The notes below the pieces were generated by a model. That model was not told where the DNA came from. It worked only from the letters and a program-made list of their open reading frames with translations, and ran no database searches. The position numbers and the translations under genes were made by a program. A DNA stretch of 60,298 nt, counting the filler, from Hausera hauseri (Eukaryota): the NCBI GenBank assembly GCA_046269625.1. It is 10 parts of 10 records of this genome, joined end to end, with 100 filler letters (N's around TTAATTAATTAA, not from the genome) between each part and the next. Parts side by side here need not be neighbours in the genome. Positions count along the whole stretch, not along the records: positions 1 to 6,077 come from JBJURY010144869.1; 9 more parts are not named here. One strand, written 5' to 3'. Of the stretch, positions 1 to 52,399 are shown in pieces; within the stretch, counting starts at the first letter, position 1; every line of letters starts with the position of its first letter.

Positions 1-1491
1 GTTCCAGTTAGCTTTTTAGAAATGATAGTGACACCCCTATTAGGTAAGCTAACCCAATCCGTTTCGCTACGTCTAAACACTGGTTTACCCAAACTTGCCT
101 TACAGTCTTTTAGGATTGTGGGTTGTGTTGCGTTGTCTAGCAACACCCTAGTGAGGAGCATGGCTAACCGTGGAGTATTCTGATAAATCACAGGAAGCTA
201 TTGTATACATCGTTTTTCTTCGATATTAATTTGTACATTTCTTTTCTCGCACTCATATGTCAGTAGAACTTCGCAAGTAACTCGACCAAAGATTCCTTCT
301 CTCATGGGAATAATCTGTGAGGTTAACTCAGGGTTCGCGTAAATAAAAGCTAATTTTGTCCTGATAATCTCCGTATCCAATTTTCAATCATTATTTATTA
401 TTTTATGGTATAGTTCGGCTATTCCGACTTGTCCTTTATACTAAAAATAATCTTCCCTGTTTTTCAGATAATCCTGGATTCGAATATCCTGCGTTTCTAA
501 GTTATACATTTTCGCGTTTATCTCCGTTTCTGCGACGAAAAACGCTTCGTATTTAGTGGTGAACATTACTACTTCACAACGTAAAATCATTTCTTTTTTA
601 ATGAATTTCAATCCATGTTGATCAGAGACTAGTATCGTAGGTGTGTGATGTTCTAATGAGTCTTTACGTGCTCTGAAACTGGCGTCAAATTTGTCTACGT
701 ATTGTTTCCCGGTAGTTTCATTAAATTTCAGTTCCTTCATCTTAATAAAATTACAGCCCTTTCCGGAGGGCGGTTCCCTTATTACGACAGAACTTCAAAG
801 GGGACATGTTCAGTCTTGTGTGTGGCATTTTTGATTCTCGGTTTATAGCTTTGTCACATTATGGAACATAACTTTCGTAAAAGTCTACTACTACTACAAT
901 TGCTTCCAATCCTTTTCCGGTGTCGTATTCTGCTCCACTACATTGCCTATTATGCATATCTAGCCTTCCCACTACTATCTTATATGCTGTAATTATCTTC
1001 CCAGGCTGCATCTCTAGTTCCATACTATCCCATTTCAGTCTTCCGGTTTCTCTGGCCTGTTTGCAGTGTTGTCTTTCCAAATTCATTGGGATCGGAGGGG
1101 TTGTTGGTTTAATTACCGAGGAGTGTCCGTGCATTAGTCCACAATGAAAGATACTACCAGATCGTCTTAGCATACATTCCATGCCATCCAAAGATATCAA
1201 CTCTTGTTGTTGGTATAGGAAATAGCTCTTCTCCTTTGTTTCCAATTTATGGGGTCTAGCATCCTCGCATGCGTCTAAGTCCATTAGTGAATATTTCAGT
1301 CCGAGTTTAAATCTATCGCAATCGTAAACGTTAACAGCGTCCATCTGTTTTATCAACATGATTATGGTAAGTAAACTTATTAACCAATTAGATTCATTCT
1401 TTCGGTTGTTGTTATCCGTTGTCGTCAAGTTTCGTATGATGTATCCTAGTCCATTATTACTGTTCCTTTTGTCTTCTTCCTTGTCAAACAA
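1..1491 (-). pseudogene. env: Chuvirus-like / gB-type (class III) envelope glycoprotein, N-terminal and central ectodomain
   Basis: A hydrophobic signal-like segment WLISLLTIIMLIKQMDA is followed by VYDC..YSLMDLDAC, FHCG..GHSS, C..A..TG.L and C.G..Y. Downstream 'RTKLAFIYANP...GIFGRVTCEVLLTYEC...C..LPV.Y' is recognisably homologous to 28325-29500. Confidence 0.8.
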
Positions 1492-4400
1492 TTATGGCCA
1501 ATTAACTTCACATGGTAGTTTTCTACATGCTTTTCGCGCCAAACTTGTAGCTAGATTTAGTTTATTTTCCCGATTTGGATTTGTCTTAATTGACAAGTAC
1601 AATAATACTTTTCTTAGCTCTTCTATCGTATTCTACACCATAATCTTTTCAACTACTGCGTCGTCAGTTAGGCTACTTTTTTACAGTTTGAAACGCGAAT
1701 TTCTCATTGCCCTAGCAGCGTTAAATATGCCTTTTCTTTATCGTCTAATGTATCTCCTCGAAGGCTTGAATAATTTACAATACATATTACATTCTTCATT
1801 AAGTCGTTTAACTCTTCATTGTCTGTGCTAAAAGTAGGGATCGACATCTGTCTTAACTCTCTAATCAGCTCTCCGTTATAGTCAATTTCTTCTCGGGACT
1901 TCCTAATACTGCCGATTTGGCGTTTCGGTCTTGGAGCATTAGCTGGCATTCCACTTAACTGTACTAGATTCTTGTCGTATTGTTCCTTGTCTTCGTCTGT
2001 CTAGATACTCGAAATACATTTCCGCATCTCGTACTATCATGATTTTTCCTCCACATTGTTCCGTTTTAGCCTTTTGAGTGGTTTCTTTTTTTGTCTGTTT
2101 ATTGGCTATTGTTACTATTATACTATTCGCTTTGTCGGGATAATTCTGACGTCTATTAACTGTTCTAAATCGTCAAGTATTCTTCCACTAAAGTAAAATC
2201 TGTAATTTAGCTCATTTGTTCCGCCACTGTTTAGTAACCATTTTCTTACGTCCTTTACGTAGGAATAAGTGGTTAGCTCACATTCTTTTTCTTCCATCCA
2301 TTCGGATGGTATCAATATTTTCATTATTATATCAGGTTTAGCCTTCAAGATGTTGGCATACTTCTTTATCAAAAGTTTTGGCACAATGTTGTAAATTATA
2401 TTTTCACTGGATAATTTAGTCAAAGTCAGAATGAGTTGCCTGAGCTTATTTTTAGTCATATTCACATTAATTGATTCCATCAAGTCCTTCTCGGTTAACG
2501 CTGAGTCTACGAGCATCTCCACATTGAATTTCCTGTTCTGTGGATACATTTCTATTTCCTCTAGGTGTACTGGAGCTACCGGATTTTCTGACGTTATTTC
2601 TTCTAAATAAGCATCCCATTCTGGTTTATTCCCAATATCTGGGTGTCCATAGTCTACTAGAGCTGTGTTCGTTCATTGCACATTTTCTCAAATTTCTTTC
2701 AGTCTTGGTTGTATTTCTTTCATCTGCGTAGTTCGGAAACCTATTTCGTTTCCACAGGCATACTGAATCATTTTCAGTAGTTTGAATAATTCGTTAGAAT
2801 TGATTAATCCTTTCTGATGATACTCGGTTAGTTCAATAATTACATCCCTTTGCCATCTCTGCAAGAACTCTCACTTATTTTTGATCTCTGATTTGGTAAA
2901 AGCGTATTTAATCCGATAGCTTTCAAAATCTTTTGCAAGTTCACTTAGCCTCGTTGCTCTTTGTTTTGTTCTTATGCACGTTTCTTCAACTTGTTGTAAT
3001 TTGGGCATCAATTGCCTCATCTTCTTATTGTTAATCTCCGCCATTTCTACCAATAAGTACATTTCATTTACAATTTTTGAGTCGGGATCCATTGCGTCCA
3101 GCAATTTCTTTACGAACTTGGATTCTTCAACACTAAGGGGTTGGTTGTTTCTTATTTTTATCAATTCGATATAGCAATTCTGGTCCGTATCGTCCATCCA
3201 TTCTCGTGGTTTGTGCAAGAATCCTACTGCTTCTATTAGTGCTGCTCTATGTTTTGGACAAATACCTAAAGTTTCGATATCCTGGATCGAAATCTCGTCG
3301 ATAGGTTTTTCTGTTAAATGTTGGATTTCTTCTCGTCGGATGCTTCTTAGCTTAGAGTAAAAATTGCAAATCATATTCTGCTTTTCTGTAAAATTCGTTT
3401 CTGCGATCATTTTATATATTTCTTCCAATATTGTCATTTCTTGCTTCTTCTTCTTCATAAATTTTAATTGTCGTAATGATTTGAATCGTGTCCGGATGTT
3501 AATTTCTGTGTGTATGGTTTTTAAGTTACGTTAACTTTTTCTAGTTGCTTTTTTACAGATGGTTCACTTTTCGGAAATTCCTCCTTACGGTCTTCTACTA
3601 ATGTACTTAATCTCCTTATTAGTTCGTACCATTTTGACATTTGATTGGCGATTATTGGCTTGGATAATATTGCTTTGTCTAGCATTTTGTATGCATCTTT
3701 CAATTCATCATCTGGGCCTTTTATGAAGTTTATAAATTGGCTAACGTAATTGAGCTCATCCTTATATTCGTCGAGTTCTATGATGCAAGCTTTTATTATA
3801 TATTTGGATTCTTCATTATTCACAAACATGATTCGATTTCTTAAACTATTGATCTGCGATCTTTTTTCATTTTCTATTTTGATGAGACTCTACGTCCGCA
3901 CATTGTCTGGTTTCGACAAAGGCAATTTTTATCATCTCCATTAACGGAAAAATATCTATCGGGTCTACACCCAATATTTCTAAATAAGTATCACTTCGAT
4001 TGCTAACCGGTTTTTCTTTAAGCCGATTAATCATTGCATGACGTACCTCATGCACTTTGCTCTGTAAGTTACGAGTCACTATTTTCAACTTATAATTAGC
4101 TTCTAAGGTAGATAGCAGTGTTTGCGCTTTAGCGACTTTTACGCCAATATTATCGTCGTCTTTACTCCATCTTTCTGAAAATTCTACTCCACTCTTAATC
4201 AATGACTCTAATTAATGGTTCCATTTCATCAACGTATCTCGTGGCACCTCTTCTGGTTGTCTTACTTCAATTGCTTCATCGAGTTTCCCTTTACTCCACA
4301 ATTTCAAACTTTTATATAATTTCTATGTAAATTGTTGTTCCTTACAGGATATATCTGTTTGTTTACTGATCTGTTTAAGTCTCTCTGAATTGTGTCGGCG

Positions 4401-4857
4401 TATCTCTGGATCGTGTCATGTAATTCTCATTCTCTTTAGTTCGTCGGCGTTCTTCCATGAACGTCGAACTTTCCATTTTCTCGCATCACGATCATTAATA
4501 TCGTCCGTTTCTTTCTCACTAGCGGGAAGCGGACAAATTTTATTGATTTCGTCATTAACATTTATTATTTCTGGTGTCTTCAAGACTTCTGGAATCCCCA
4601 TTGGCGTGATGGAAGTATCTGAGGACAAGTCTCCTCCCAGGATAGCGGTATAAAGATCTTTTCTTTCCACGTCTTTTTTTTACAGAAGGCCGTGAGCGGG
4701 TCTTGGATCTTCTCTTAGGCGATGGGCTTTTACGTCTATTCTTTGTTATTTTAAGGATTAATGGCCCGATAAATTCGCTTTCAACTTCCTTTGTTATTTC
4801 GTCTGGGTTATGCACTACGGCTTCTATTTCTGCGTTTAAGTCTACGTTTTGAGATGT
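1492..4857 (-). pseudogene. Roughly 1100-codon accessory region of unknown function, including a ubiquitin-like domain at ~2118-2330
   Basis: ORFs 4555-4815, 4416-4670, 3867-4202, 3521-3829, 2871-3458, 2118-2549 and 1704-1949 are separated only by point stops or shifts. ORF 4555-4815 is in frame with gag after one stop. 'VKDVRKWL..GG.NELNYRFYFSGRILDDLEQLIDVRI' resembles the ubiquitin pattern '[21 protein letters not shown]'. Confidence 0.6.
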
Positions 4858-6077
4858 TTATGGTTTCTCTGACTGAGCTATTCCTTGGAGAATCGATTTC
4901 TTGCGCTCCATATTAACATTGTTCGGTGCCAGTGCATATTCTGCTTCCGTTTGTGGTTCTCTTAATCCATGATAGACTTCCATTAATCGTAATTTCTCTT
5001 CATACTCTTTTCTAGCCTTCATTGCTTGAGGATCTGTAGTTTCGCCTAGATTCCTCACAGATCTGCGTAGATCTTGCATTTCAATGATCAGGCTTATATC
5101 GCCTCGTTTACCGCAAATGGTTTCTAAGTTATTTTTAATCATACTTGTTTTGTTCGGTTCAGTAAATGTGACGGTTCTAGGATTTGGACATGATCTAGCG
5201 ATGTGTCCTTCTTTGCCACATGTAAAACAGATTAAATTTCCATTCCGACCAATCCTTTGTGGGCCATCCTCATTCACTGGTGATTTTGAGCTGTTTATAT
5301 TCTTATTCTGGCCCTGTAACATTTGTCTATTATCTCCATTATATCTATTATCATTATTCCGATTATCCGTATATTTAACATTGGGTCGGTAACTACCTTG
5401 GTTTCTATCTGGATTGTAACTTAATTTATTATACGAGTTATATGCATTCCGATTATTACAAGAATTTCTATCGTTTCTTTGATTCCTATTATACACATTT
5501 TGATTCCTGTTATCAAAACCTCGGTTCCGGTTATTATTATTAAATCGTCTGTTGTCTTGATTATCGTTTCTATTCCGGTTATTACTGTCATTATTCCTTT
5601 CATATTTGTCGCCTTGTTGGGCATATTTCTCCAAAGCCATTTCTAAGTCTTGGGCTAATTGTAACGTCCTTTCAAAATTATCGGGCCTGGCCAGAATTAA
5701 CTGTTTAACTAGATCTCTTGATCATATGCCATTTATTAACTGAGTCGTCATCATGACGTCTAAGTCTGGCGGCGTCGCCTTTTCCGCGGCATCACGTTCT
5801 GCGTTTGTCTTAGCTTTTGCTACGTTGGCTATCCTTAAAGTACTTACATAACTATTAGCGAATTTCTTTAATGCAAATGCAAACTGGGTTACCGATTCAC
5901 CCTTTTATTGCACTCTGTTTTGAAATGCCATAAGTTTTTGTTGCAGCGTCACTGTTGGCAATAACTTACGGTTTAAAGCTCCTACTATGGAGAACCAAGA
6001 TTTCTTTTTATCATTAGTAAGCGTTTATCAATAGTAAACGTTTTATTGTTACTTCAGGAGTGAGACTAGAACCTTCC
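4858..6077 (-). pseudogene. gag: Retrotransposon gag with CCHC zinc knuckle
   Basis: Capsid motif 'Q*KGESVTQFAFALKKFA' (~5860-5910), an N/R-rich linker, and the knuckle CFTCGKEGHIARSC in ORF 4858-5640. Confidence 0.88.
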
Positions 6078-7272: not shown

Positions 7273-10200
7273 GTTTTCCCCACCTAACTCGCAATTCTGA
7301 GCATTTCATATCTCCTCGTCAGAAGACCCTCCTGGCCGGAAGCACATGTCATATGTCGCACATTTTACGAGCTGAAATCGGTAGAGCTTGACGAAGCGAG
7401 AAAAATTTCGTAGCGCGGCGAGAGAAAAAAATTTTATTGGGCGGCGCTAGAAGCAAAAGAAGCAAAACAGGAAATGTTTTACCAGAAACGAGACACGAGT
7501 TACGAAATGCGCAATGTTTGGTGCAAATGTCAAATCCATGTTAGAGAATCGAATGCGCAAAAATTCAACTTCGCCTGACCACGGGAACATTGGGAAAAAT
7601 TGATGGGAAAATTTAAAACCCTAAAAATTTCCTATTGTTCAAATGGATTGAGCACGTAGCGCAAAAGTAGTTCAGCATTTCATATTATAGCCGGCCCACC
7701 ATCAGACCAATGGATCCGGGTGAAAAATGGAACGGAACGAACCAACGAAAGAATCAACGAAGGAAAAAATGAAGGAAAGAACGAACGAAAGAACGAACAA
7801 AAGAATGAATGAAAGAACTAATGAAAGAAGGAACGAACGAGCGAAAGAACTAAAAAACGAAAGAACGAACGAACAAACGAATGAAAGAACGAACGAACGA
7901 TCGAACAAACTAAGGAACGAACGAATGAACGAACGAAAGAAAGAAAGAACAAACGAGAGAAGGAACGACCGAATGAACGAATAAAAGAACGAACGAACAA
8001 ACTAACGAACGGAAGAACGAATAAAAGAATAAACGATAGAACGAATGAAAGAAAGAACGAGCGAAAGAACGAACGAATGAAAGAACAAACGAAAAAAAGA
8101 ACGAATGAAAAAACTAATGAACCGAAGAACGAACGAAAGAACGAACGAAGGAAGGAACGAACGAACGAACGAAAGAAGAAAAGAACGAGCGAACGAACTA
8201 AGAAACGAATGAACGAACGAACGAACGAAAGAACGAACAAATGAAAGAACGATAGGACGAACGAACAAACGAACGAACGAAAGAAAGAAGGACAGAATTG
8301 ACGAACAAATGAACGAACGACAGAACCAATGAAAAAAAGAAAGAGCGAACGAACGAAAGAACAAAGGAACGAAGGAAGGAACGAACGAACGAACGAATAA
8401 AAGATCGAACGAACGAACGGAAGAACGAACGAAAGAACGAACGAAGGAACGAACGATCGAGCGAACGAATGAATGAACGAAAGAACGAATGAAAGAACTA
8501 ACGAAAGAAAAAACGAACAAGAGAAAGAAATAATGAACGAAAAAACGAAGGAAAAAACGAATAAAAGAACGAACGAAGGAGCAAACGAAAGAATAAAAAA
8601 ACGAACGAAGGAACGAACGAACGAACGAACGAACGAACGAACGGATGAACGAACGAACGAGCGAACAAGGGGACAAACTAAAGAACGAGAAAACAAAAGA
8701 ACAAAGGAAAGAACGAACCAACAAACGAACAAATGAACAAAAGGAAGAACGAACGAACGAAAGAAAGAACGAACGAAAGAACGAAAGAATAAATGAACGA
8801 ACGAAAGAACGAACTAAAGAACGAATGAAAAAACGAACGAAGGAACAAACGGACGGACGGACGAACAAATAAACGAACGAACGAACGAAGGAACGATTGA
8901 AAGAACGATCGAACAAATGAAAGAACGAAGGATCGAACGAACGAAAGAATGAAGGTATGAACGAACGAACGAAAGAACGAACGAAATAAACAATGAAAGA
9001 ACGAGCGAACGAACTAAGGAACGAATGAACAAATAAAAGAACGAATGAAAGAATTACGAATGGAAGAACGAACAACAGAACGAATGAAGGAACGAACGAA
9101 CGAACGAGCGAACTAACTAAAGAACGAATGAAAGAAAGAACGATCGAACGAAGGAAAGAAAGAATGAGCGAACGAGCGAAGGAACGAAAGAACGAACGAA
9201 ATAACGAATGAAAGAACGAGCGAACGAACTAAGGAACGAACGAATGAAGGAAGGAACGAACAAACGGACGAAAGAACGAAAGAAAGAATGGACAGTCGGA
9301 CGGACGGACGAACGAACGACCGAACGAACGAAGGCACACACTGACGGACGGACGGACGAACGAACGAACGAACGTTCGATCGAGCTAAGGAACAAAAGAA
9401 GGAACGAAGGAACGAAAGAAAGAACGAACGAGCGAACAAACGATGGAAAAAACGAGCGAACGAAAAAACTAGAGAACGAACAAACGAAAGATCGAACGAA
9501 CGAACGAAAGCATTAATGGTGGAACGGACAAAAGAACGAACGAGCGAATGAAAGAACGAACCAATGAAAGAACGAAAGAACGAACGAACAAAAGAACGAA
9601 CGAGAAAATAAAAGAAGGAAGTAAAGAACGAAAGAAAGAACGAAAAAAGACCGAACGAACGAGCGAAAGAACGAGCGAACGAACGAAAGAACAAACGAAC
9701 GAAAGAGCGAAAGGACGGACGGGCGGGTGGATGGACGAACGAAAGAACGAACGAATGAACTAATGAACGATAGACCGAAAGAACGAAAGAAGGAACAAAG
9801 GAACAAAGGAACGGACGAACGAAAGAACGAACGAACGAAAGAACAAACGAACGAAAGAGCGAAAGGACGGACGGACGGAAGGAGGGACGAAAGAAATATG
9901 GAACGAACGAACTAATGAAAGAAAGGAAGAAAGAACGAAAGAACGAACGAAGGAACGGACGAAAGAAAGAACGAACGAACGAAAGAAGGAACGAACGAAG
10001 GAACGACCGAGCGAACGAGAGCAGGAAAGAACAAAAGAACGAACGAACGAACGAACGAAAGAATGAACGATAGAACGAACGAAAGAACGAATGAACGAAT
10101 GAACAGTCAAACTAACGAAAGAACGAACAAAGGAAAGAAAGATCGAACGAACGAAAGAACAAACGAACGAAAGAGCGAAAGGACGGACGGGCGGGTGGAT

Positions 10201-13200
10201 GGACAAACGAAAGAACGAACGAATGAACTAATGAACGAAAGACCGAAAGAAAGAAAGAAAAAAAGAACGAACAAACGAACGAAAGAACGAACAAAAGAAC
10301 GAAAGAACAAACGAACGAAAGAAAGAATGATCGAACGAATGAGTGATCGAACGAACGAAAGAACAAACGAAAAAGCGAACGAAAGAGAGAACGAACGAAC
10401 GAACGAAAGAACGAAAGAACGAAAGAAAGTAGGAATGGACGGACGAACGAACGGACGGACGAAAGAACGAAAGAAAGAAGGAAAGAACAAATGGAGAAAA
10501 GAACGAACGAACGAAAGAACGATCGAGCGATCGAAAGAAAAAACGAAGAAAGGCGCGAACGGACAAAAGAACAAACGAAAGAACAAAAAGCGAACGAACG
10601 AATGAACGAACGAAAGAAAGAAAGAACGATCGAAAGAAATAACAAATAAACGAACGAACCAACGAACGATAGAACGAAGGAACGAATGAACGAACAAACG
10701 ATATATCGAACGAAAAAAGGAACGATCGAAAGAAAGAAAGAAAAAAGGAAAAAGAGAAGGAACGGACGAACGAACGAACGAACGAACGAATAAATGAACG
10801 AACGAGTGAACGAACGAACGAACAAAAGAGAGATCGAGCGATCGAAAGAAAAAAACGAAGAAACACGCGAACGAACGAAAAAACGAACAAAAGAAAGTAT
10901 GGTTGGACGGACGAACGGACGGACGGACAAAAGAACGAAGGAAAGAAGGAAAGAACGATCAAAATGACAAAAGAACGAACAAAGGATCGATCGAACGAAA
11001 GAACGAACAAACGAAAGAACGAACAAAAGAACGAACGAACAAAAGAACGAAAGAAAGAATGATCGAACAAATGAGTGATCGAACGAACGAAAGAACGAAC
11101 GAACTAACGGAAGACCAAAAGAAAGAAAGAAAAAAAAACGAACGAACGAATGAACAATCGAACCAACGAACAAACGAACGAAAGAAAGAACGAAGGAACG
11201 AAAGAAAGAACGAACAAAGGAGCGAACGAGCGAATGAATGAATGTACGAAAGAACGAAAGAAAGAAAGAACGAACAAAAGAACGAACGAAAGACCGAACG
11301 AAGAAACGAATGAACGAACAAGTGAACGAACGATCGAACGAATGAAAGAACGAACGAACGAACAAATGAACGAAAGAACGAACGATCGAACGAAGGAAAG
11401 AAGGAATGAGCGAACGAGTAAACGAATGAACGAATGAAGGAGGGAACGAACGAAAGAACGAATGAAGCAAGGAACGAACGAAAGAAAGAACGAGCGAACG
11501 AAGGAAAGAAGAAACAAATAAACGAGCGAACAAACAAAAGAACGAACGAGCAAACCAACTAACGAACACAAGAAAGAATGAAAGTACGAACGAAGAAACG
11601 AACGAAGGAAAGAACGAACGAAAGAACGAATGAAAGAACGAAAGAAAAAAAAGAAAGAACGAAAGAACGAGCGAACGAACTAAGGAAAGAATGAAAGAAC
11701 GAACGAAGGAAAGAACGGACGAACGAAAGAAAGAAGGAATTAAAGAAAGAACGAAAGAATGAACGAACAGACGAACGAATGAAAGAACGAACGAAGAAAC
11801 AAATGAAAGAACAAATGAACGAACGATCGAACGAATAAAAGAACGATCGAGGGAACGAACGAACAATTGAACAAAAGAACGAACGATCAAACGAAGTAAA
11901 GGAAGAATGAGCGAACGAGTGAACGAATGAACGAACGAACGAGGGAACAAGCGAACGAACGAATGAAGCAACGAACGAACGAACGAAAAAAAGAACGAGC
12001 GAACGAAGGAAAGAAGGAACGAGCAAACAAACAAACGAGCACATGAACGAATGAACGTAGGAACGAAGGAATAAACGAATGACCGAATGAAGGTATGAAC
12101 GAACGAACGAAGGAACGAACGAAAGAACAAATGAAAAAACGAACGAACGAAAGCATTAATGGTAGGACGGACGAAAGAACGAACGAGCGAATAAAAGAAC
12201 GAACGAGCGAAAGAAAGAAACAACGGAGAAATTAGAGAATAAACGAAGGAACGAACGAACGAACGAACGAACGAACGAACGAACGAACGAACGAACGAAG
12301 GAACGAACAAATGAAAGAGCGAACGAACGAACGAACGAAAGAACGAACGATCGAAAGAAAGAAACAACGGAGGAACTAGAGAAAAAACGAGGGAACGAAC
12401 AAAAGAACGAAGGAATGATCGAAGGAAAGAACGAAAGAACGAACAATCGAAAGAAAGAAAGAACGAAGGAATAAGAGAACGAACGAACGAAATAAAGTAC
12501 GGACGGACAGACGGACGGAAGAAAAAACGAAAGAAAGAAGGAAAGAAAGAAGGGACGAACGAATGAACGATAGAACGAACGAACGAAGGAACGAACGAAA
12601 GAACGAACAAGAGATTGAATGAAAGAACGAAAGAAAGTACGGAAGGATGGACTGACGGACAAAAGAACGAACGAAAGAAGGAAAGAACGAAGGGACTAAC
12701 AAACGAACAAAAGAAAGAACGAACCAGCGATCGAACGAAAGAATGAACGAAAAAAAGAAGGAACGAAAGAACGAACCAACGAAGGAACGAACGATCAAAA
12801 TGACGAAAGAACGAACAAAGGATCAATCGAAAGAAAGAACGAACGAACGAACGACGGAATGAACGAAAGACCGAACGAACGAAGGCACACACTTACAGAC
12901 GGACGGACGAACGAACAAACGAACGAACGTTCGATCGAGCTAAGGAACAAAAGAAAAAACGAAGGAACGAAAGAAAGAACGAACGAGCGAACAAACGATG
13001 GAAAAAACGAGCGAACGAAGAAACTAGAGAACGAACAAACGAAAGATCGAACGAACGAACGAAAGCATTAATGGTGGAACGGACAAAAGAACGAACGAGC
13101 GAATGAAAGAACGAACCAATGAAAGAACGAAAGAACGAACGAACAAAAGAACGAACGAGAAAATAAAAGAAGGAAGTAAAGAACGAAAGAAAGAACGAAA

Positions 13201-15390
13201 AAAGACCGAACGAACGAGCGAAAGAACGAGCGAACGAACGAAAGAACAAACGAACGAAAGAGCGAAAGGACGGACGGGCGGGTGGATGGACGAACGAAAG
13301 AACGAACGAATGAACTAATGAACGATAGACCGAAAGAACGAAAGAAGGAACAAAGGAACAAAGGAACGGACGAACGAAAGAACGAACGAACGAAAGAACA
13401 AACGAACGAAAGAGCGAAAGGACGGACGGACGGAAGGAGGGACGAAAGAAATATGGAACGAACGAACTAATGAAAGAAAGGAAGAAAGAACGAAAGAACG
13501 AACGAAGGAACGGACGAAAGAAAGAACGAACGAACGAAAGAAGGAACGAACGAAGGAACGACCGAGCGAACGAGAGCAGGAAAGAACAAAAGAACGAACG
13601 AACGAACGAACGAAAGAATGAACGATAGAACGAACGAAAGAACGAATGAACGAATGAACAGTCAAACTAACGAAAGAACGAACAAAGGAAAGAAAGATCG
13701 AACGAACGAAAGAACAAACGAACGAAAGAGCGAAAGGACGGACGGGCGGGTGGATGGACAAACGAAAGAACGAACGAATGAACTAATGAACGAAAGACCG
13801 AAAGAAAGAAAGAAAAAAAGAACGAACAAACGAACGAAAGAACGAACAAAAGAACGAAAGAACAAACGAACGAAAGAAAGAATGATCGAACGAATGAGTG
13901 ATCGAACGAACGAAAGAACAAACGAAAAAGCGAACGAAAGAGAGAACGAACGAACGAACGAAAGAACGAAAGAACGAAAGAAAGTAGGAATGGACGGACG
14001 AACGAACGGACGGACGAAAGAACGAAAGAAAGAAGGAAAGAACAAATGGAGAAAAGAACGAACGAACGAAAGAACGATCGAGCGATCGAAAGAAAAAACG
14101 AAGAAAGGCGCGAACGGACAAAAGAACAAACGAAAGAACAAAAAGCGAACGAACGAATGAACGAACGAAAGAAAGAAAGAACGATCGAAAGAAATAACAA
14201 ATAAACGAACGAACCAACGAACGATAGAACGAAGGAACGAATGAACGAACAAACGATATATCGAACGAAAAAAGGAACGATCGAAAGAAAGAAAGAAAAA
14301 AGGAAAAAGAGAAGGAACGGACGAACGAACGAACGAACGAACGAATAAATGAACGAACGAGTGAACGAACGAACGAACAAAAGAGAGATCGAGCGATCGA
14401 AAGAAAAAAACGAAGAAACACGCGAACGAACGAAAAAACGAACAAAAGAAAGTATGGTTGGACGGACGAACGGACGGACGGACAAAAGAACGAAGGAAAG
14501 AAGGAAAGAACGATCAAAATGACAAAAGAACGAACAAAGGATCGATCGAACGAAAGAACGAACAAACGAAAGAACGAACAAAAGAACGAACGAACAAAAG
14601 AACGAAAGAAAGAATGATCGAACAAATGAGTGATCGAACGAACGAAAGAACGAACGAACTAACGGAAGACCAAAAGAAAGAAAGAAAAAAAAACGAACGA
14701 ACGAATGAACAATCGAACCAACGAACAAACGAACGAAAGAAAGAACGAAGGAACGAAAGAACAAAAGAAGGAACGAACGAAGGAACGAAAGAATGTACGG
14801 ACGGACCGAAGAACGAACGAAAGAACGGAGGAACGATCGAACAAACGAACGAACGGCCGAACGAACGAACGAACGACCGAACGAACGGACGATAGAACGA
14901 ACGAATGAACGAACGAACGAAGGAATGAGCGAACGAGCGAACGAACGAAGGAACGAACGAACGAACGAATGAACGAACGGAAGAACGAACGAAAGATCGA
15001 ACGAACCAGCGACCGAAAAGTGGAACGGACAAACGAACGAAAGAAAGAACGGGCGGACGTAGGAATGGACGGACGGACGAATGAACGAACGATAAAACAA
15101 AGTAACGAACGAGCAAACGAATGAACGAAGGAACAAACAAAAGAACGAACGAGCAAATGACAGAACGAAAGGAAGAACGAACGAACGAAAGAAAGAACGA
15201 ACAAAAGAACGAAAGACCGAATGAATGAACGAAAGAACGAACGAAAGAATGAATGAAAAAAGACCGAGCGAACGAGCGAACGAACCAAAGAACGAACGAA
15301 CGATAGAACGAATGAATGAACGAACGAACGATAGAACGAAAAAAAGAAAGTACGAACGAAGCATCGTGAATTTTATTTTGTACGATGGCG
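7273..15390 (+). mobile_element. Interspersed non-coding element with an internal GAAC microsatellite (possibly Helitron/Helentron-derived, DINE-1/HINE-like), here massively expanded
   Basis: 7273-7740 aligns colinearly with 34360-34830 (GTTTTCCCCACCT; ATCGGTAGAGCT(T/C)GACGA; GGCGCTAGAAG; AACATTGGGAAAAAT(T/C)GATGGGAAAATTT; AGCATTTCATATT; GGATCC..GTGAA). After the satellite both copies resume with GCATCGT. The superfamily assignment is tentative. Confidence 0.55.
7730..15362 (+). repeat. About 7.6-kb degenerate (GAAC)n/(GAAA)n satellite
   Basis: Continuous GAAC/GAAA/GAAT/GGAC tetramers, with a nearly T-free plus strand. It explains all the SFVR/ERTN-type pseudo-ORFs in the ORF track. Confidence 0.98.
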
Positions 15391-15579
15391 TCGAACGCAC
15401 AAATTACCATGAGCTCATAATTGAGCACTACTACACACAAGAAGAATAATTGCGATCAAAAGTCACAATAATGAAAATATAATATTATTTCTCATAATTT
15501 GTTCGCTCTTCATTCTAATGTTCAATTTCGAAATATAGGATATTTGAAGTTGAGACTGTATTGGCTTGTTGTTGTTTGG

Positions 15580-16251: not shown

Positions 16252-17165
16252 AGGCCCGGAGTTATTGGGGTTACAGATATTTTAAAGTATTTGGTATGAA
16301 ATGGATTTTAGGAAGTCAAATAAAATAGCAAAGAAATTTTCTTTTCGAATGCCAGAATATCAGACCTTATTTGATGCGTTAGGTGGTTCAAGAATTTTCA
16401 CAACAATTTTGTTTGAACCGAGTAACACTTTGCGTCTCAACGGCCTCGGGAACGTTGCAGCCACTGGTGAACACACTGTTCGAAGACTTACTGTTTGCGA
16501 GTGTTTTCACGTACCTGAATGACGTGCTGATTTACTCAAAGACGATTTCGGAACATTGCAAACTACTAGGAGAGGTGATGAAAAGATTGAAAAATAAAAA
16601 TCTAAAAGTGAATCCCAAAAATGTAGGTTTGGTGTTTCGGAGTTGATATTTCTCGGACATACTATTAATAATCAGGGGGTTTCAACAAATCAAGTAAAAG
16701 TAAAAGAGATCCAGAATTTTCCAGTCCCAAAGTGTACGAGTTATAGCGTTGTTTGGCTAAAAGAGTGTGAGGAAAGTTTCAAGTAATTGAAATTGAAGCT
16801 ATGTGAAGCGCCAATATTAACCTTCATGGATCCAACGAAGGAATTTATTTTGGATACAGGCGCATCGTTTGGCGCAATCGGAATAGTACTCAGCCAACAA
16901 ATAGGAAATAAAGAAAAGGTAGTAGCGTATGCGTGTAGAACACTCTTATCTTTTGAGGTGTTCTGCGTTACAAGAAAGGAACTGTTGGCATTACAAGAGT
17001 TTATGCTGCATTTTAAACAGTATGTGTATGGTAAGCACTTACGGCTAGAACAGATCATAAGGCGTTGGTATATATAAAGACCGCTATCAAAACAATAACA
17101 CCACAATTCCAGACGTGGCAAGAAAACATGACAAATTTTAATTTTACACTCGAATTCAAGTAAAA
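16252..17165 (+). mobile_element. pol: Decayed gypsy pol fragment (RT - RNase H)
   Basis: MDFRKSNK, 'VFTYLNDVLIYSKT', 'FLGH.IN..G', 'KLCEAPILTFMDPTKEFILDTGAS..AIG.VLSQ', 'VTRKELLA'. Confidence 0.85.
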
Positions 17166-17217
17166 TTCCGCTTTAGCGGATATACCAACTGGCAGGGAAT
17201 TTTCAATCCAACCTAAG

Positions 17218-20200
17218 ATGGGTGACGAAGTGGCCAGCGTGGACGAGCTCACAGCTAACATGGCGACTTACGCCACAATGGACATTTTCGCGAACCAATT
17301 GTTGCCCAACAAATTCAGGAAAGGAGACGACATGCAGAAGTTCATTAAATGATGTGAGAAATTCATTAAATATATGAATGCCCCGGAGGCGGAGCGGGAA
17401 ATCATGGTTTGATGTCTCTTGGAGAAAGAAGCATAAGAAAGATACGAGGCAGTAGATGTGAAGATAACGGGATATCAAAACCAATTACGAAAGACTTTCG
17501 CCCGACCATCAACACTGTGCGAAGATCTGAAAGAGGCACTCGAGTACAAAATAAATGGAGCGGAACCGGAGGCTTACTTGAAAGCAATCGAGAAACTGTT
17601 GGATAAAATTATGAAACACGAATTTTCACTCGAGATTCTAAAAGAGGAACTATTGTTCCAATGTCGTAACAATAGAGAGATGAAAAGATTGATATGCCTC
17701 AATGGCAAACGAGACGCGGAAATCATAAAAGAGGAAATACGAAAGATACACGAAGTAAAGTTTAAAACAGAAGAAATCAGTTATCCAGGGTTCGGTAGAA
17801 GAAGCTACCAGGAAGTAGCAACATAAAATATCAAGAAACCCGTTCCTAGAACCAACACTACGCCAATTAGATCACCAAATAGTGGATTAAAGTGTTGGAC
17901 ATGTCGGATTGAAGGACATACGACAAGACCTTGCACCACATGAAGACTGACTAAATGTCTGGATGCTGAAAAGAAGAACATATAAATTGGCAGTGTCCCG
18001 AAAGAAAACCAATAACATGCGACGGATGTGGTCAGCAAGGGCACATCAGACGAAATTGTATAAACCTTAAGTTGTGCAAGATGTTACCATAGAGGACATA
18101 CCGAAAAGGAGTGCTACACAAGGCTGGAGGGGGAAGAAAACCAGGATGAGACACATAAAACAATAAAAGAAGGTTTGGGGATAATTTGAACAGAAAACGA
18201 GGAAGTCGCAAATGTAAAAAAAGAAGAAACAGAATAGAAACATGAGTCAGTTGCCCCAAAAGGGAGAGCCTCGATAGAAGTGTAGCAAATCGGGGCATTT
18301 CAATAGATTCAGTCTCCAAAAATATCGTTATGTATAATAGTAGTAATATATCAAACAAAACGGGAAATTTCGATGAAATATCCTGCAGCGGAACAGAGGA
18401 CATGGAGAACGATACGCAGATCTTCATGCTAGAATTGTATGCCGAACATATATCATACGAGTAGTTTAATGGACGACCAGGAATCAAGTTAAGAATAGAA
18501 GATAGATGGGATGATTACTTATTGGACACAGGGGCCAGGGTAAATGTCATAAGCTAGAAGACCGTTGATAAACTGACAAACATACATATAGAGAAATCGG
18601 ATGCCACACTACGATATGAGAATAATAGCCCCTTAGATTGCCTGGGTACAGTGACAATAGACGTAGAAATCAAGGGACTAAGGAGACGCGTAACATTCCC
18701 GGTAGTGTCAGAATTACGCCTGGAAATAATAGGTGGTATAGACCTGCAAAAAGCATTCGGAATAGAACTGAGATGGAAATGCAAGGAACGGAAACATTCC
18801 AACAAGACATAAGCAACCTGGAAGCCAAATTCGGCCGGAAGGTGTCTAACCAGGAACGAGTCAACAGGGTGAATGAAACTCTTCAGGTCAGTGACAATAA
18901 GGACCTACGCAACATTATGCAAAAGTACCCAGAGGTATTCATGGGCGACAAGTGTCACATAGAGTGCACACCTCTCATCAAATGCCGAATAGACACGACA
19001 GGAGCGCTGATTAATATCAAACCTCGCATGCAGCCAGTAAACCTAGAGACCATCCGAAACCTGTGGGAAAACGACATTATCAAACCATGTAACTGAGCAT
19101 GGAATACACTAATGATATGGGTGTGAAAGAAAGACAAGAAGGATGTCAGAATCTGTCTGGACTTCAGACAGCTGAATCTTATAACGGAACAGCAGGCTTT
19201 CCCATGCCTAACGTGGTAGAGATATTGGACAGGTAATACGGGACCATGTTTTTCACGACAATCGACCTAGAGAATGTATATTACCAAGTGGAGATAGCGA
19301 AAGACTCCAAACTGAAGACGGCGTTTTCAACCAAATTATTGCAATTCTGTTTTAACAGAATGTCATTCGGGGACATTGAACAAACAGTGGTATAGCTAGA
19401 TAATATACTAATCTTCTCTAAGACTCTAAAAGAATATTATAGGATACTCAAAATGTATTGGAAAGGATCAGGGAAGCAGATCTCGGGGTAAACCCCGAGA
19501 AATATCATATTTTAGAGCATATTGTGAATGACAAGAGGATACAAGCAGGCATCAAAACTGGAAGAAATTAAGTCCTTGGAGAAACCAAAATGTGTCAAGA
19601 ATTTGAGAAGCTTCTTAGTGATCTGCAACTATTACAGAAGATTTATCTAAGGTTACGCAGCAAAGGCAGGTTGAATAACAAGAAATTAACATGGACCGAG
19701 CAATGTAACGAGATCTTAGAGTCAATGAAAAGATCCCTAGACACCCCATCAATACTAGGTTTCCCTGATTTCAAGAGAGAATTTAGCCTCGATACGGACG
19801 CAACCTTCGATACAATTTGAGCTGTACTGTCACAGAAGGATAGTTTGGGACGCGGGAGAGTGATTTCGTACGGATCACACGCAATGATCAACCGTGAAAA
19901 CGGATATTGTATGACTCGAAAGGAACTACTGGCCATGTATTATTTTTGTGAACATTTCAACCATCACCTATACAGGAAACGGTTCACACTGAGAAAGGAC
20001 CACAAGGCAATAACGTTCATGGTAAAGAAAAAAAAACAATATCTGCCTAAATTCAGACGTGGATCAACTACCTATCCAGTCTATACATCAACGTAGAGTA
20101 CAAAAAAGGCACCGATGATGCGAACGCAGATATGCTATCCCACACAAGTTACGAAACATGCAGCCAATGTCTACAACAACCCGACGACGCCAAAATGCAG

Positions 20201-20457
20201 AAAAGCAAGACTCGGAGGATAAACGTCCTAGAAACAGCAGAAACATACCAATACCAGAAAGACAGCAAAGAAATCGAAGAAATAAAAGAAAGCATTGCCC
20301 GAAGAAAACAAAGAAGATTTATGCTAGGAGATGGAATAATAAAAACACAAACAGGTAAAATTTGGATACCAACGAACAGACGAGTAGAAATGATAACGCA
20401 TAACCATGTCATGCTGTCTCACGCAGGATCAGAAAAGGTAATAAAATACATTGACAG
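17218..20457 (+). mobile_element. Decayed gypsy element: gag (several CCHC knuckles) - protease - RT - RNase H - start of integrase
   Basis: Knuckles CWTCRIEGHTTRPC and CDGCGQQGHIRRNC (~17890-18120), LLDTGARVNVI (~18520), CLDFRQLN, IDLENVYYQV, YLDNILIFS-like motif, FSLDTDA, TRKELLA, and an integrase H..LSHAG. Many stops and frameshifts. Confidence 0.9.
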
Positions 20458-24685: not shown

Positions 24686-25704
24686 TTAAAAAATCAAATG
24701 GCTCTCAGAACTCATGCCATATTTTAATTTGTTTTCTTCAAATAAATCATTGAGGCAATTAAAATATTTTTCATGAAGATGGTTCACCTCTTCCTCCGTG
24801 GGATTTTCACGTTTTTCAACAGAAATCGGAGTACCAACAACTGTTACCAATGGTTTCTTTATGGGGCATAAATCCAAACGTATAGTTGAATACTCCTCGA
24901 CCATAAAACAATGGCGGAGAATTGTGAAAACGCCGTTTAAACCATTCTTGAAACGAACGAAGATATGATCCTTGAGGATTCTTTACTTAAGTAAACAATT
25001 CATTTTCATGAAATCCAAAACATGGAACTAAATCGACACAATATTTTAGAGCCCATTTTGACGAAACCTTTACGGTCTTTCAGTTTAAGTTTCAAAGCCT
25101 CCGGACGACATTCCAATTCTTCTTCAGCACCCCCAATAACGATTATGACCGCATTTCCCTTACCGCATTTCGTAAACAAATATCCGATACTTTCCTTACT
25201 CGAATCACTAATCCCGAATGATAACAAATACGTTAGAATAAATGGATGATAATAATTATTAACCAAAGTTAATAAAATAGATTTAATCCCGGAAAACAAT
25301 TTCGTAATTCCTGTAGCCTCCATGGAAAAGTTACAAAATGCTCCACAAACCAAAATCCCATGGGGATGATAACCAAATAAATAATTTTTACTCGGATCCA
25401 AATCAGGAGTTTTCACCAAACTGATCGGAAAATAATCTCGATAATACGTCCATATTTTCCATCGTCGAACGCACTCAAATCGTCTTCCACCGGTTTTCTG
25501 AGTGTCCCGTTCGTAGACAATGACCCAGAGTACATACAGCAATGTCAACGGCCAGAAACTGGTAAACAAACTGTAAATTACAATCAATCAACAGATAATG
25601 GGACCAAATATAAAGAACCAAAACCTTTGGGCTACGACAAATGTTTGCAGTCGTCTCTCAAGTTGAATAAACAGCGGACAGAATTCAATTCCTAATATTT
25701 TCAT
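24686..25704 (-). pseudogene. DGAT2/MOGAT-family acyltransferase, full length, intronless, disrupted
   Basis: MKILGIEFCPL..LERRLQT, YYRDYFPISLVKT..LDP.KNYLFGYHPHGIL (HPHG motif), GGAEE, RKGFVK, TVVGTPI.V, LHEKYF..L..LFEENK. One in-frame stop (~25590) and frameshifts near 25050-24900. Confidence 0.9.
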
Positions 25705-28324: not shown

Positions 28325-29862
28325 TGATGATAACTATGAGTGAGTGCGAATATGATAATGGCGAATGTGATACTGGAGAATCGAAAATGACATGGGAAAC
28401 CTCGGCAAGTAAATGTCAGTTAACGCTGCTAAAAGAAGGAAAGTTTAACAAAACAGTAGGAAAACGGCGGAAAAAGAAACAGCTACATATAAAGAAGGAA
28501 CAAAGGAAGTCAAGATGGCAGAAGTGGCTACAATTGTATATTCGGAAAACCCAGAAGAAATGACGCGATTCAAAATCACTGGAGTAGCAAATAAGTGTAG
28601 CGAAGAAATATCAAAAACCAACTATAAGTGTATATTCTTACCGAGAAAAGAAATACCCCGTGCGAAAACCAAAATAGACAAGAAAGATATAAAGCTAACA
28701 CAATATTTCGATAACAAGATCGATTTTCTAATCAATTACGTAAGGAAAGAAATTAGAGGTTTATATCGAGAAATAATAATGAATGAGTGCAAATTGAACT
28801 ATAAAATAATGCGTAATAAAATGGCATTGGTAATAACGAATCCCGACATGGTAGCGCCAGTAATGCCCTTTGGCGATGGAATTATTGGAAGAGTGATGGA
28901 CTGATAACAATAGAATGCAAAAAGGTGGAAGGATCAATGAGGCCAGTAGACGAATGTACAATGGAATTACCCGTAGTTTATCACTCAGAAGCGCGATATG
29001 TTATGCCTGTGACTAGGATATTAATAGATATTAATGTAAAGTCTACTGTACTATACAATTGCACTTTTAATATGCCGCCAATGTTTAAGATCGACAACGA
29101 CAAATGGATTAGAATGCCAAAAAGAGAACTAGTGTCTAAACCGGAGATGTTAAGTTTGATTAATTTGCAAAGGAATCAGAAATTTGAACCGTTGACAGGA
29201 ATATCACAAGGAGGAATCTATACCCAACAAAATCTAGAAGACTATTGACGAATGTTGTTATTCCCACAACAAAGACAACTAGTTATAACAGAACTAACCA
29301 GGAGAGTAATGTGGGATGTCGAAGGATCACCACAATGGGAAAACCTAATGGGGAAGGATTATCTAAAGAAAGTAACAAGAAATATTATGGAGATGTGGGG
29401 AAAGTTCCTATATTTTGGCCAAGCAGCTTCCGGTTTTCTAGATATATATTTTTTATTAGCACCTTACGGACAATATTTACGGCACTAGCATATGGAATAC
29501 ATGCAGCAGTAGGATGCTCATGGAAAATTCTAATAGCCGTAACACCGGCAGTAGTCAGTTGTTTCCTAGCAAACCACGACACACTATGGAAAAGGAAGAT
29601 TCTACAAAGGAAAGATGGAAAAGATTCCCCGTATAGCATACCTGATGATAACGATATTGAATGTGATCAAGTAAAAGTAAAAGCTAAACATAGACGAATG
29701 ACCGGTATTAAACAAGTAGTGCTTAAGACACGAAAGCCGAAGTATAGACAGAAGTTAATAACTGATTTACCCCATCTAGATCCCGTAGATGAATACCATG
29801 GAGAGTTATATAACGAGCAACAATTAGTGAATCCTTCAGCTCCCCGATACGTAGTGCATACA
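28325..29862 (+). pseudogene. env: Chuvirus-like / gB-type envelope glycoprotein, C-terminal half, membrane anchor and tail
   Basis: CEYDNGECDTGESKMTW...C, YFDNKIDFL, C.L..KIMRNKMALVITNP, GIIGRV, C.KV....RPVDECTMELPVVY, P.TRIL, C....PPMFKI...W, GGIYT, LLFPQQR, WGKFLYFGQAASGFL plus a hydrophobic stretch, and a tail with PSAP. Confidence 0.85.
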
Positions 29863-29959
29863 NNNNNNNNNNAACAAAATTTTGACGAAAATGTGATACA
29901 CAATAAACGTGAATCTACGTATAAAACTTATGATAAAAATGAACAACAACAACCACCTA

Positions 29960-32751
29960 TAAGGCCAGAAAGGGAGATAGAGGTGAATTGATACCCAATG
30001 ACGGCTTTGCTAGACACTGGATCTACAACGACGATAATGGGAAGAAGCCAATTACCAAAAGAGTTAACAAAAAACTACGAAGACCGACAACTACCTTTGT
30101 GAATGTAGGAGCATTCGTCACAGAAGAGGAAATTAAGATGGTCTTAGATGCCAAAGTTAAGATCGGTGAACAGATTGTGAAACAAACTATACGGATAGCA
30201 CATAATCTGACTAACGAGATTCTAATTGGATGTGATATACTAAACCAATTGGAAAATGTTTATATAGGTGTGAAAACATGCCAACTTAAGACGTTCAATG
30301 GAGATCGTAACGAGAGAATGGTTTCTCTAACAAGAGACATCACGATTCCACCACGATCAGAGATAGTGGTACCTGGAGAAATAGAAAGTCGTGCATACCG
30401 GTGGTTACATATTTTCAACCATTCCCACAGGTTATGGAAAAATTTGAAGTCCTAATCGCCCGTCACGCAGACAAATTAAGAGACGGAAAAGTCCTCTTAC
30501 GAATTTGTAATACAACAAACAAAGAAAAACGATTACAGAAGGATATTAGACTGGAAAAAGTAACAATCACTGAAGAAATAATAAAAGAAGAAAATTGCTC
30601 AATAATTTCAGATGTAAATAAAATAGAAAAGATAATGACAGAAAAACTGAAAAGGAAATCAGACGGAGACAAAAGAAGAAAGAAAACCACGAACATCAAT
30701 TGGAATGAGAGGTTACAAAAATGTAAAATCTTAAATAAGAAAGAGAAGGAGATGCTAATCGAATTGTTGGAAAAGAATAACAGTCAATTTGCACAAACTG
30801 ATTATGATCTAGGCACAATGAAAATAATACAGCATACCATTAAGTTAAAAGAAGGGACAAGATAAACCAATTAAGAAAAGACCATATTGATTAGCATACG
30901 ATAAAAAAACAGGAAGCGAGTAAAATAATAAACGAAACGAGAGAAAACAAGATAATTCGACCAAGTTGTTCCCCATGGACAGCGCCAGTGGTAATGGTCA
31001 AAAAGAAAGACGGAACTATGATATTTTGCATAGATTATAGAGCATTAAACGAAATAACGGAGACGGATACATATCAATTACCAAGAATTGACGAAATACT
31101 AGATAAACTACACGGATCGACAATATTCTCAACCATCGATTTACAAAAGGGTTACTGGCAAGTGGAGGTGAAAGATGAAGACAAACCAAAGACAGCCTTC
31201 TCAATTAGAGAAGGGCTATGGAAATTTAATAGGATGCCATTTGGACTAAAGAATGGACCGCCAACATTTCAGAGAGGGACCGAACTCCTGCTGTTAGATG
31301 CCCCACATGCCATGGTATATATAGATGACGTAATAATAGTTCCACCAAATTTTCAACATCTAAGGGATCTACAAGATCTCTTCGATAGATGCGAAATAAT
31401 GGGTCCAAAAATAAACCCAAAATGTTCATTTGCTCAAACGGAAGTAGACTTTCTCGGGAACAGAATAGATAGAGATGGTGTAAAACTGCAAGACAAGCTG
31501 TTAGGAAAAATAAGAGATTTCCCAAAGCCAGGTACAGTTAAAGAATTACGTCAATTTTTAGGTTTGGCAAACTATTACCGAAGATTTATAAAGGATTTTA
31601 GCAAAATTGTGAAGCCCTTGTATGAATTAATACGTGTAGACTTAGATAAAGTTATTTAGACGAATGAATGTGAAAAAGCTTTTGAATATTTAAAAGATAA
31701 ACTGTTAACTGCTCCTATATTAATCTATCCTGATATGATCAAACCATTTATTTTAGCAACAGACGCAAGTGATTATGGTGTAGAAGTGTTGTCACAAAAG
31801 GGTGAAGACCGTAAGGAACATCCAGTAGCTTACGCTTCACAAAAAATCAATAAACACCAGAAGTATGCGGTAATTGAAAAAGAACTATTGGCAGTAATAT
31901 TTTTCTTGGAAGTATTTTCGTCCTATATTAGTGCAAATAAACCTTTGATAATCTACACAGATCATAGACCACTTCAATGGTTAAAACAACATGAAAATCC
32001 AAATAGTAGACTACTACGATGGACTCTAAAGTTGCAGCCATATACACTGAATTTCCAGTATAAGCCTGGAACACGAAACGCAAGTGCGGATTACCTATTC
32101 AGAATACCCAATAAACCAGAAACAGAGAAAGCAGTAGTCGCAGCCGTATGGAGGATGGATGGATCCGTAGAAAAAATCAAGGCAAATCAAAATGAAGATA
32201 CTGAAATAAAAGCCATTAGAAATATATAAAAGATAAAACCATGTCAGCTGACAGGGAATTAGCTCGCCATCTGGCCAGATTCAGTGAAGCTTATGAAGAG
32301 AAAGAAGGATTTTTATACTTCGTTCACCAAAACAGACCCGCTTTAGTAATTCACAAGAAAAATAGAACAGTTTTGTTAACTCAATGCCATAATGGACTAC
32401 TTGGTGGACATCAATCAGCAAACAAAACACTTAATAAGTTTGAACGAAAATACTTTTGGCCGACGATAACGAAAGATGTACAGGATTGGTGTGACAGTTG
32501 TAATTTATGTGCTATCCTGAAGAACACGGGAACCAAATACAAAGCACCTCTCAAAGTATAGGACAACCCTCCGGCACCATTTGAGTTTACCGCAATGGAT
32601 ATAACAGGACCACTACCGTTAACACGGAATGGAAAAAGATATATCCTAGACATTATTGACTATTTCACTAGATGGGTTGTTGTCCTACCAATGGCTTATA
32701 TGAAGGCAGATACAATCGCTAAAAAATTTGTGGAAAATATAGTATTTAATT
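29960..32751 (+). mobile_element. pol: Gypsy pol: protease - dUTPase-like spacer - RT - RNase H - integrase (truncated)
   Basis: RPEREIEVN*YPMTALLDTGS (LLDTG at 30007-30021), ILIGCDIL, ITIPPRSE, FCIDYRALN, MPFGLKNGP, YIDD (~31318), FLGLANYYRRFI, LATDAS, EKELLA, TDHRPL, integrase H..LLGGH..C..C and IIDYFTRW. Confidence 0.93.
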
Positions 32752-39570: not shown

Positions 39571-39880
39571 CTTCAAAGACACCAACTTCGGACCTTTCGA
39601 TAACCTTTGCATATCCAATTTTGTATGGAAACAAATCGCTTCCAAAATCAGAAATGAAAAATTATTTAAACTGTGCCGATCAAATAATGCGTATTTCAAA
39701 CGAATATTTCGCTTCTACACACAAAATAAGCTTATTGATTACCAATTTCGGCGTGTTTTGCAACCTTACAGTCTCCGCTTTATCCGCTCCAGATATTTAT
39801 GTGCGACTGCCCATTAAGACTGACGAACCCCGATTCATTAAACGCAGTGAAACAAGTAAGAATTCGGCCACCCTGCATTT

Positions 39881-41800: not shown

Positions 41801-41900
41801 NNNNNNNNNNNNNNNNNNNNNNNNNNNNNNNNNNNNNNNNNNNNTTAATTAATTAANNNNNNNNNNNNNNNNNNNNNNNNNNNNNNNNNNNNNNNNNNNN

Positions 41901-52220: not shown

Positions 52221-52399
52221 GCAGCATTTCGGTGACCACCCGGGCGATCGCTTCCAGCAAGTCAATACTAAAGGAAACTGTGGTGCCCGCGCCGATCGTC
52301 GTCCTCCGGCCCATTCTGCTGGGCACGGCCGGGTTTTCCGTTGCCGACGCGTCGAGCACATAGGCAGGCCCCGATTTTCTTTACTAAAAATGTTAACAT

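Follow-up and report, generated by a model that had tools for sequence, protein, structure and literature searches.

A long accessory coding region between gag and a chuvirus-type env in a probable Ty3/gypsy element of Hausera hauseri

Can an LTR (long terminal repeat) element encode Gag and Env in one ancestral reading frame, with no pol between them, and what then fills the space from one to the other? The question is raised by the first 6,077 nucleotides of a 60,298-nt stretch of the Hausera hauseri genome (GenBank assembly GCA_046269625.1), referred to here as the window, in which short contigs are strung together via N spacers. Positions 1-6077 (JBJURY010144869.1) represent a single contig or one contig's end and carry, on the minus strand, the end of gag, a long middle region, a hydrophobic stretch and env, with both ends of the element lying beyond the contig. 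A preliminary description of the locus read it as one gag-to-env open reading frame (ORF) and proposed that env precedes pol. Our analysis indicates that the contig probably holds a decayed copy of a high-copy animal Ty3/gypsy LTR element of the GAG-ENV-POL kind, with an env of the chuvirus/gB type that a long accessory region separates from gag. The new part is this near-orphan, conserved region of ~1,270 codons, kept across many copies.

The 3' part of gag (5230-6077, minus strand) comprises a capsid-like helical part, recognized by eye, and a low-complexity stretch rich in Asn, Arg and Asp; the gag start lies beyond the contig end. This part contains a frame change near 6025 and stops at 5907 and 5724, and its piece 5725-6024 gave no Pfam match. 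A CCHC zinc knuckle follows (5182-5229, minus strand; PF00098, E 3.3e-6, 27.4 bits against a cut-off of 20.8), the only one in gag as judged from the single Pfam-matched stretch and by eye. The first stop 3' of the knuckle in the gag frame falls at 4860-4858 (minus strand), 107 codons past the knuckle; the frame then stays open for another ~60-100 codons, and the stop may mark either a real gag end or decay. The earlier claim that gag continues in frame past one stop into a long charged region is borne out by this in-frame stop, by the open frame beyond it and by the fraction of K+R+D+E residues, which is 0.31-0.35 in the middle region versus 0.28-0.29 in the gag and env pieces. The damage was understated, however, as the gag frame closes by 4557 at the latest. 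Early in the middle region, a Ser-Pro-rich basic stretch (4750-4680, minus strand) resembles a nuclear localisation or RNA-binding segment.

The middle region (1384-5181, minus strand) extends over ~1,266 codons when counted from the knuckle and 1,158 when counted from the stop at 4860-4858; the preliminary description gave ~1100. It is charged, mostly helical by look, and interrupted by 10 stops and 6 frame changes in the window's copy. The absence of pol between gag and env was confirmed: all of six pol motifs for protease, reverse transcriptase (RT), RNase H and integrase are missing from each of the six frames of 1-6077, tblastn of this contig with five pol pieces from a second element in the window (at 28325, see below) returned nothing better than E 0.87, and Pfam gave no pol match in 1-6077. 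Profile searches, which the preliminary description had proposed for the region, did not name it, as in-frame middle-region pieces produced no Pfam family above cut-off and no match below E 0.035. PDB sequence searches with five middle-region pieces or profiles likewise gave nothing under E 0.2. On searching 1707-3530 against 1.84 billion protein representatives, two matches were obtained. One of them, the unnamed P0001 (150 aa, 38% identity, E 2.2e-19), is the sole clear relative, aligning with 2610-3059 (minus strand), and finds no explanation in Pfam, ESM Atlas or PDB sequence search; the other, the repeat protein P0002 (E 6.5e-4), was rejected as a chance match.

Downstream of the middle region lies an env ectodomain of the chuvirus/gB type (1-1383, minus strand), which the contig end cuts before the membrane anchor, leaving about two thirds of env. 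It matches PF24664 (Monjiviricetes_fusion) twice above cut-off (E 9.1e-16, model positions 5-176; E 7.7e-15, model positions 251-424 of 653) and is interrupted by a frame change at 797-753 and by stops at 861, 443, 386 and 200. Neither half has env relatives among longer proteins (203 and 488 candidates; weak evidence), and ESM Atlas returned no usable match for 862-1491. The view that env begins at an internal, signal-like hydrophobic segment is well founded: the stretch at 1351-1383 (minus strand) reaches a Kyte-Doolittle value of 3.05 over 11 residues, the highest hydrophobicity of all six pieces, precedes a small-residue site and a VYDC motif, and coincides with the start of the PF24664 match. 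The env frame extends up to ~1737 and in this respect joins the end of the middle region (~1700-1492), as had been described, but three stops (1683, 1635 and 1494) interrupt it within 1737-1492, the frame being open for 37 codons above the hydrophobic stretch. In-frame ATGs occur only at 1707, 1641, 1359 and 1344, leaving the interval from the last stop (1494) to the hydrophobic stretch without one.

To score the coding character of the contig, the cheapest reading in terms of stops and frame changes was compared with that of dinucleotide shuffles. For the whole contig, the cheapest path takes 16 stops and 8 frame changes, and so is not one frame, at a cost of 40 versus 117.9 +/- 5.7 in 40 shuffles (z -13.6). 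The path through the middle region costs 28 versus 72.7 +/- 4.9 in 60 shuffles, the lowest of which reached 64 (z -9.1), and both halves of the region are open beyond the shuffles (z -7.3 and -4.9); for comparison, the opposite strand scores z -2.1 and the next contig z -2.8. The middle region is coding, and no intergenic gap separates it from env. Its frame changes lie near 4680, 3890, 3532, 2174-2120, 2001 and 1740-1706, positions that are approximate, with allowed ranges of 10-125 nt. Of the single ancestral ORF from gag to env, coding throughout and the lack of a non-coding gap hold, whereas the window's copy needs 16 stops and 8 frame changes and its junctions are cleared only in part, as discussed below.

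Copies of the element in the public run X1, which contains 0.31 of its sampled words, help to separate decay from original structure. Among the 15,501,002 contigs of X1, 15,313 fit 1-6077 at a likeness of at least 80%, covering 30 of 30 bins and falling into four identity bands of 673, 2,131, 5,731 and 6,778 contigs, numbers that do not translate into copy number. Because these contigs extend in four bands over the whole stretch, the middle region belongs to a large, diverse family. Length differences among the X1 copies are listed at five places, four of which fall no more than 6 nt from a frame change in the window's copy (P about 6e-5 when the allowed ranges are taken in full), including the first frame change after gag, at a run of A. 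Similarly, among 40 substitutions listed out of 1,310, four fall in the 16 stop codons, compared with 0.32 expected (P 3e-4), and the last stop before env (1494) is one of those listed. Since X1 copies differ at these stops and frame changes, at least part of the breaks in the window's copy represents decay; together with the size of the family, the unshared breaks therefore mark 1-6077 as a decayed member of a large family and not as a pol deletion. None of the 21 joints shown (15 of 85, plus 6) links gag directly to env. One related X1 contig bridges 4723-5055, and no listed X1 contig spans the whole of 1-6077. Related loci were found neither among viral contigs nor among metagenome contigs, and no RNA dataset is listed among those sharing sampled words with the element.

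What follows env is seen in a second, divergent element on another contig of the window (28325-32751, plus strand), which carries the C-terminal half of env, a hydrophobic anchor (~29485-29590), a tail, protease, RT, RNase H and integrase. The corresponding Pfam matches are PF24664 (E 1.4e-10 and 6.2e-33), RVP (1.5e-5), RVT_1 (1.2e-24), RT_RNaseH (5.2e-31) and Integrase_H2C2 (1.4e-17), of which we take the RNase H and integrase families to be gypsy-type. Env stands before pol in this sister element, and the two are probably fused: after a 10-base gap (29863-29872), one frame reaches the protease motif past a single stop, whereas the other two contain 4 and 7 stops. As noted earlier, the two envs are alignable but divergent, two aligned stretches of 101 and 77 residues (E 8e-14 and 3e-11) each being 31% identical. 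The independent support claimed for an env-before-pol architecture thus exists in the sister element, but for the 1-6077 family it is indirect, because the element with env and pol belongs to another family by this 31% env identity and the 1-6077 contig ends inside env.

Comparison with published systems places the element among known architectures. According to passages of Chary and Hayashi (eLife 2026, PMC13524379), Ty3/gypsy elements in Nematoda, Bryozoa and Platyhelminthes have the order GAG-ENV-POL, and the gB type is their sole ENV; PF24664 would correspond to the HSV/gB type of that work through its link to Chuviridae. The errantiviruses presented there (e.g. Smed_errantivirus_1-6) and the 1-6077 family are alike in gene order, in a chuvirus-like class III env and in being multicopy, and by eye both envs of the window are nearer to the six Schmidtea C1a ectodomains of the supplement than to the bryozoan or nematode ones. 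The spans listed for Smed_5 and Smed_6 are 16.9 and 18.0 kb versus 14.5-14.9 kb for Smed_1-4, an excess of 2-3 kb by hand arithmetic that is about the size of the middle region, and this extra length may represent a region like the one found here. The terms 'polyprotein', 'in-frame' and 'fused' have no matches in PMC13524379, whose passages, as far as available, do not describe a long gag-env region. The 1-6077 family fits the GAG-ENV-POL group on every tested feature, namely the knuckle, the gB-type env with its hydrophobic front, no pol in between and multiple copies, with pol expected behind env.

An in-frame arrangement is also in print, for the planarian giant gypsy element Burro (GYPSM1), whose polyprotein of 4,873-5,140 aa is described in passages of Arkhipova and Yushenova (2019, PMC6431247) as Gag, a long accessory region and env in frame, then protease. 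If pol follows, the 1-6077 family would reach an estimated 3,200-3,600 codons; summing the parts, the full element is estimated at a minimum of 3,200 codons and ~10.5-11 kb. Burro has two or three CCHC knuckles versus one here, and its env is given as gypsy-Env-like with matches to mononegavirus fusion proteins, the type being unstated in those passages (PMC6431247), whereas the env at 1-6077 is PF24664. Burro further possesses BIR, MATH, ankyrin and SMC-like domains (PMC6431247). For these, the 1-6077 element gave no Pfam match to E 1 in 6 of 6 pieces or to E 10 in further pieces, decayed sequence lowering the sensitivity. Because of the single knuckle and the lack of BIR, MATH, ankyrin or SMC matches, we do not file the element as Burro. 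Just before its env, Burro carries ubiquitin-like and then BCL2-like domains (PMC6431247), and this order is also that of two weak hints in the middle region at 1-6077, both of which we regard as hints only.

The first hint is a ubiquitin-like domain suspected by eye at 2330-2121, where a 70-residue piece picked by eye matched PF00240 at 2142-2267 (minus strand) with E 0.079 and 13.2 bits, under the cut-off of 25.4; neither PDB sequence search nor a single-sequence model (pLDDT 39.6) supported it. The second, a Bcl-2-like helical domain likewise suspected by eye, consists of three predicted helices before env (1495-1680, minus strand), a half-domain single-sequence model with pLDDT 56.8. In Foldseek, this low-confidence half-domain model gave no match under E 0.5 and placed BHRF1 at rank 8 (E 2.9). 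Structure comparison found three Bcl-2 family chains at Z 2.7-2.8, ranked below unrelated rows, and the family is absent from the top 50 of a wide structure search with the same model; the best hit (Z 5.9, rmsd 3.2, 67 aligned) reflects a common helical arrangement.

Two further groups of elements resemble the one at 1-6077 in part. Non-canonical nematode endogenous retroviruses (ERVs; Sacco et al. 2022) have env ahead of pol in a metavirus, as described in passages of PMC13524379. They differ from the 1-6077 family in their nematode host and, by eye, in env subtype. The nematode ERVs are said to have a single continuous gag-env-pro-pol frame, and we know of no long gag-env insert in them. Among BEL/Pao elements, 'Anakin' carries a chuvirus glycoprotein (Dezordi 2020; PMC10084718, in the part available), so that the same glycoprotein family was captured by an LTR element, but of the BEL/Pao superfamily, whereas the sister element here gave gypsy-type Pfam matches. 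The available parts of PMC8532177 and PMC11410931 add nothing further on structure. With the GAG-ENV-POL order and the in-frame Burro polyprotein both in print, the architecture is already known and the interpretation in the preliminary description is largely anticipated, as far as the available passages show (PMC13524379, PMC6431247); given the known gene order and in-frame env, the finding opens no new class. The literature compared yielded no description of a gB-type element in which a long unnamed insert separates gag from env, but such a description may exist, since key papers and published ORF sequences lie outside the comparison.

Modelled on established polyprotein biology, expression of an intact copy may be pictured as follows. 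The middle region and env would share one frame, which most likely also takes in gag and continues into pol. As an internal signal, the hydrophobic stretch would send env into the endoplasmic reticulum (ER), where a signal peptidase cut would free the Env N-terminus in the lumen; the membrane anchor would return the chain to the cytosol, and protease there would free Pol. The signal remnant could hold the upstream product on the membrane and would thereby keep Gag near Env. The middle region itself most likely strings together accessory domains that act on the host or in particle assembly, a role also suggested for those of Burro. A bolder version would make the family a mid-sized link between GAG-ENV-POL elements of 8.5-9 kb and giant Burro: a polyprotein of more than 3,000 residues, in which Gag bears ~1,270 new accessory residues ending in ubiquitin-like and Bcl-2-like modules. 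A class III fusogen's internal signal would serve as its ER anchor, in a flavivirus-like topology, and capsid, envelope and an anti-death function would thereby be coupled. Taken as a whole, we consider this version unlikely. Should the middle region nevertheless prove to have Burro-like host-directed domains, it would show how env-before-pol elements became giants. The internal signal offers a clear test case for how one polyprotein could deliver Gag and Pol to the cytosol but Env to the lumen, and for the control of their amounts.

Several observations weigh against our interpretation of a decayed GAG-ENV-POL element. No pol, LTR or primer site of the 1-6077 family is seen in the contig. The copy evidence comes from the single run X1, which may be close to the source, and the listed length differences represent a minority of the depth at each place. 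Four of the eight frame changes (near 6025, 2174-2120, 1740-1706 and 797-753) have no listed length difference, and 12 of the 16 stops, that at 4860 included, are not among the 40 listed of 1,310 substitutions; the gag/middle and middle/env junctions are therefore only partly cleared. Break positions are approximate because the path method chose the wrong frame at the protease of the sister element, in which, moreover, the frame across the 29863-29872 gap is presumed rather than read. Comparison of a DGAT2-like host gene did not point to one host phylum, as its highest-identity matches (61-64%) are proteins without names and its named matches (44-52%) spread over many groups. Finally, one gag-to-pol frame implies equal amounts of Gag, Env and Pol, which is unusual for such elements.

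This last difficulty would be solved by recoding after a separate gag. Here the order of parts is the same, but gag forms its own frame that ends at or shortly after 4860, and the middle region, env and pol form a second frame reached by read-through or frameshifting, with Gag in excess; such an excess by recoding is the rule in Ty3/gypsy elements. The stop at 4860 is the first break past the knuckle and does not appear among the listed differences, although, with only 40 of 1,310 listed, its absence says little. The next break sits at a run of A, but the copies vary in length there just as they do at three other breaks. The 107 codons from knuckle to stop and the frame that remains open for ~60-100 codons past it also speak against a gag end at this position, and Burro, in the passages available, has no stop of this kind after gag (PMC6431247). 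We consider a separate gag frame, the strongest of the alternatives, rather unlikely.

Env might instead be a separate unit expressed from a spliced RNA, as in Drosophila gypsy, the middle region then being a long gag extension or an accessory frame with its end at 1740-1490. Three stops and a frame change do cluster at 1740-1492, the frame change at 1740-1706 is one without a listed length difference, and a splice could provide the absent start codon. However, 37 open codons of the env frame precede the hydrophobic stretch, the listed differences include the stop at 1494, and no non-coding gap separates the middle region from env. Moreover, AG sites with at least 8 pyrimidines in 14 nt number only 4 of 33 at 1800-1380, with none nearer env than 1586. 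Splicing of this kind is thus improbable.

It is less probable still that the copies form a non-autonomous family without pol, in which pol was deleted or replaced by the middle region, the element is copied in trans and env is followed by the LTR. The contig ends inside env, so pol of the 1-6077 family is not seen, but no pol remnant remains between gag and env, pol does follow the related env at 28325, and the GAG-ENV-POL order is published for intact elements in the available passages of PMC13524379. The fragmented assembly and the lack of a listed X1 contig over the entire stretch might suggest that the middle region arose by nested insertion or by chimeric assembly of unrelated repeats. 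This is extremely unlikely in view of the unchanging strand, an A-rich skew that is uniform through 1-6077, continuous coding, the related contig that bridges 4723-5055 and the 21 shown joints, none of which skips the middle region.

The other contigs of the window contain animal genes or gene remnants (IP3 receptor, TPR, Ulp1 protease, DGAT2-like) and further mobile elements. Four pieces are long, partly decayed and intron-free: DGAT2-like at 25006-25587 (minus strand), IP3 receptor at 37935-38765 (plus), a TPR protein at 40621-41004 (plus) and Ulp1 protease at 53134-53562 (plus). They are suggestive of many retrocopies in the Hausera hauseri genome. At 7650-15450, a ~7.8-kb A-rich array of 4-base-type units (spacings 8 and 12) produces long spurious open frames on the minus strand.

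Among the mobile elements, 16252-20457 (plus strand) holds two decayed gypsy-type elements head to tail, with RNase H of one and, of the other, gag with knuckles, protease, RT and RNase H, without env; the gag start there is reminiscent of elements from microsporidia and planarians. Another gypsy family is represented by two related decayed gag-like leaders at 50534-52360 and 39860-40414 (both plus strand; DUF7041, E 0.002), one of which is followed by a protease-like piece. Pieces at 54812-56472 (plus strand) resemble Maverick/Polinton-type DNA polymerase B by eye, with no Pfam match at E 0.01. An intact, intron-free frame of 774 codons (41853-44177, plus strand) at the start of a contig lacks a Pfam match. 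By eye it has what may be a fibronectin-like part and a strong membrane segment; these precede an exonuclease match of the ISG20/REXO4 type (1wlj, E 2e-5) that seems to have lost its first acidic motif. A large mobile element or a virus might carry this frame as cargo.

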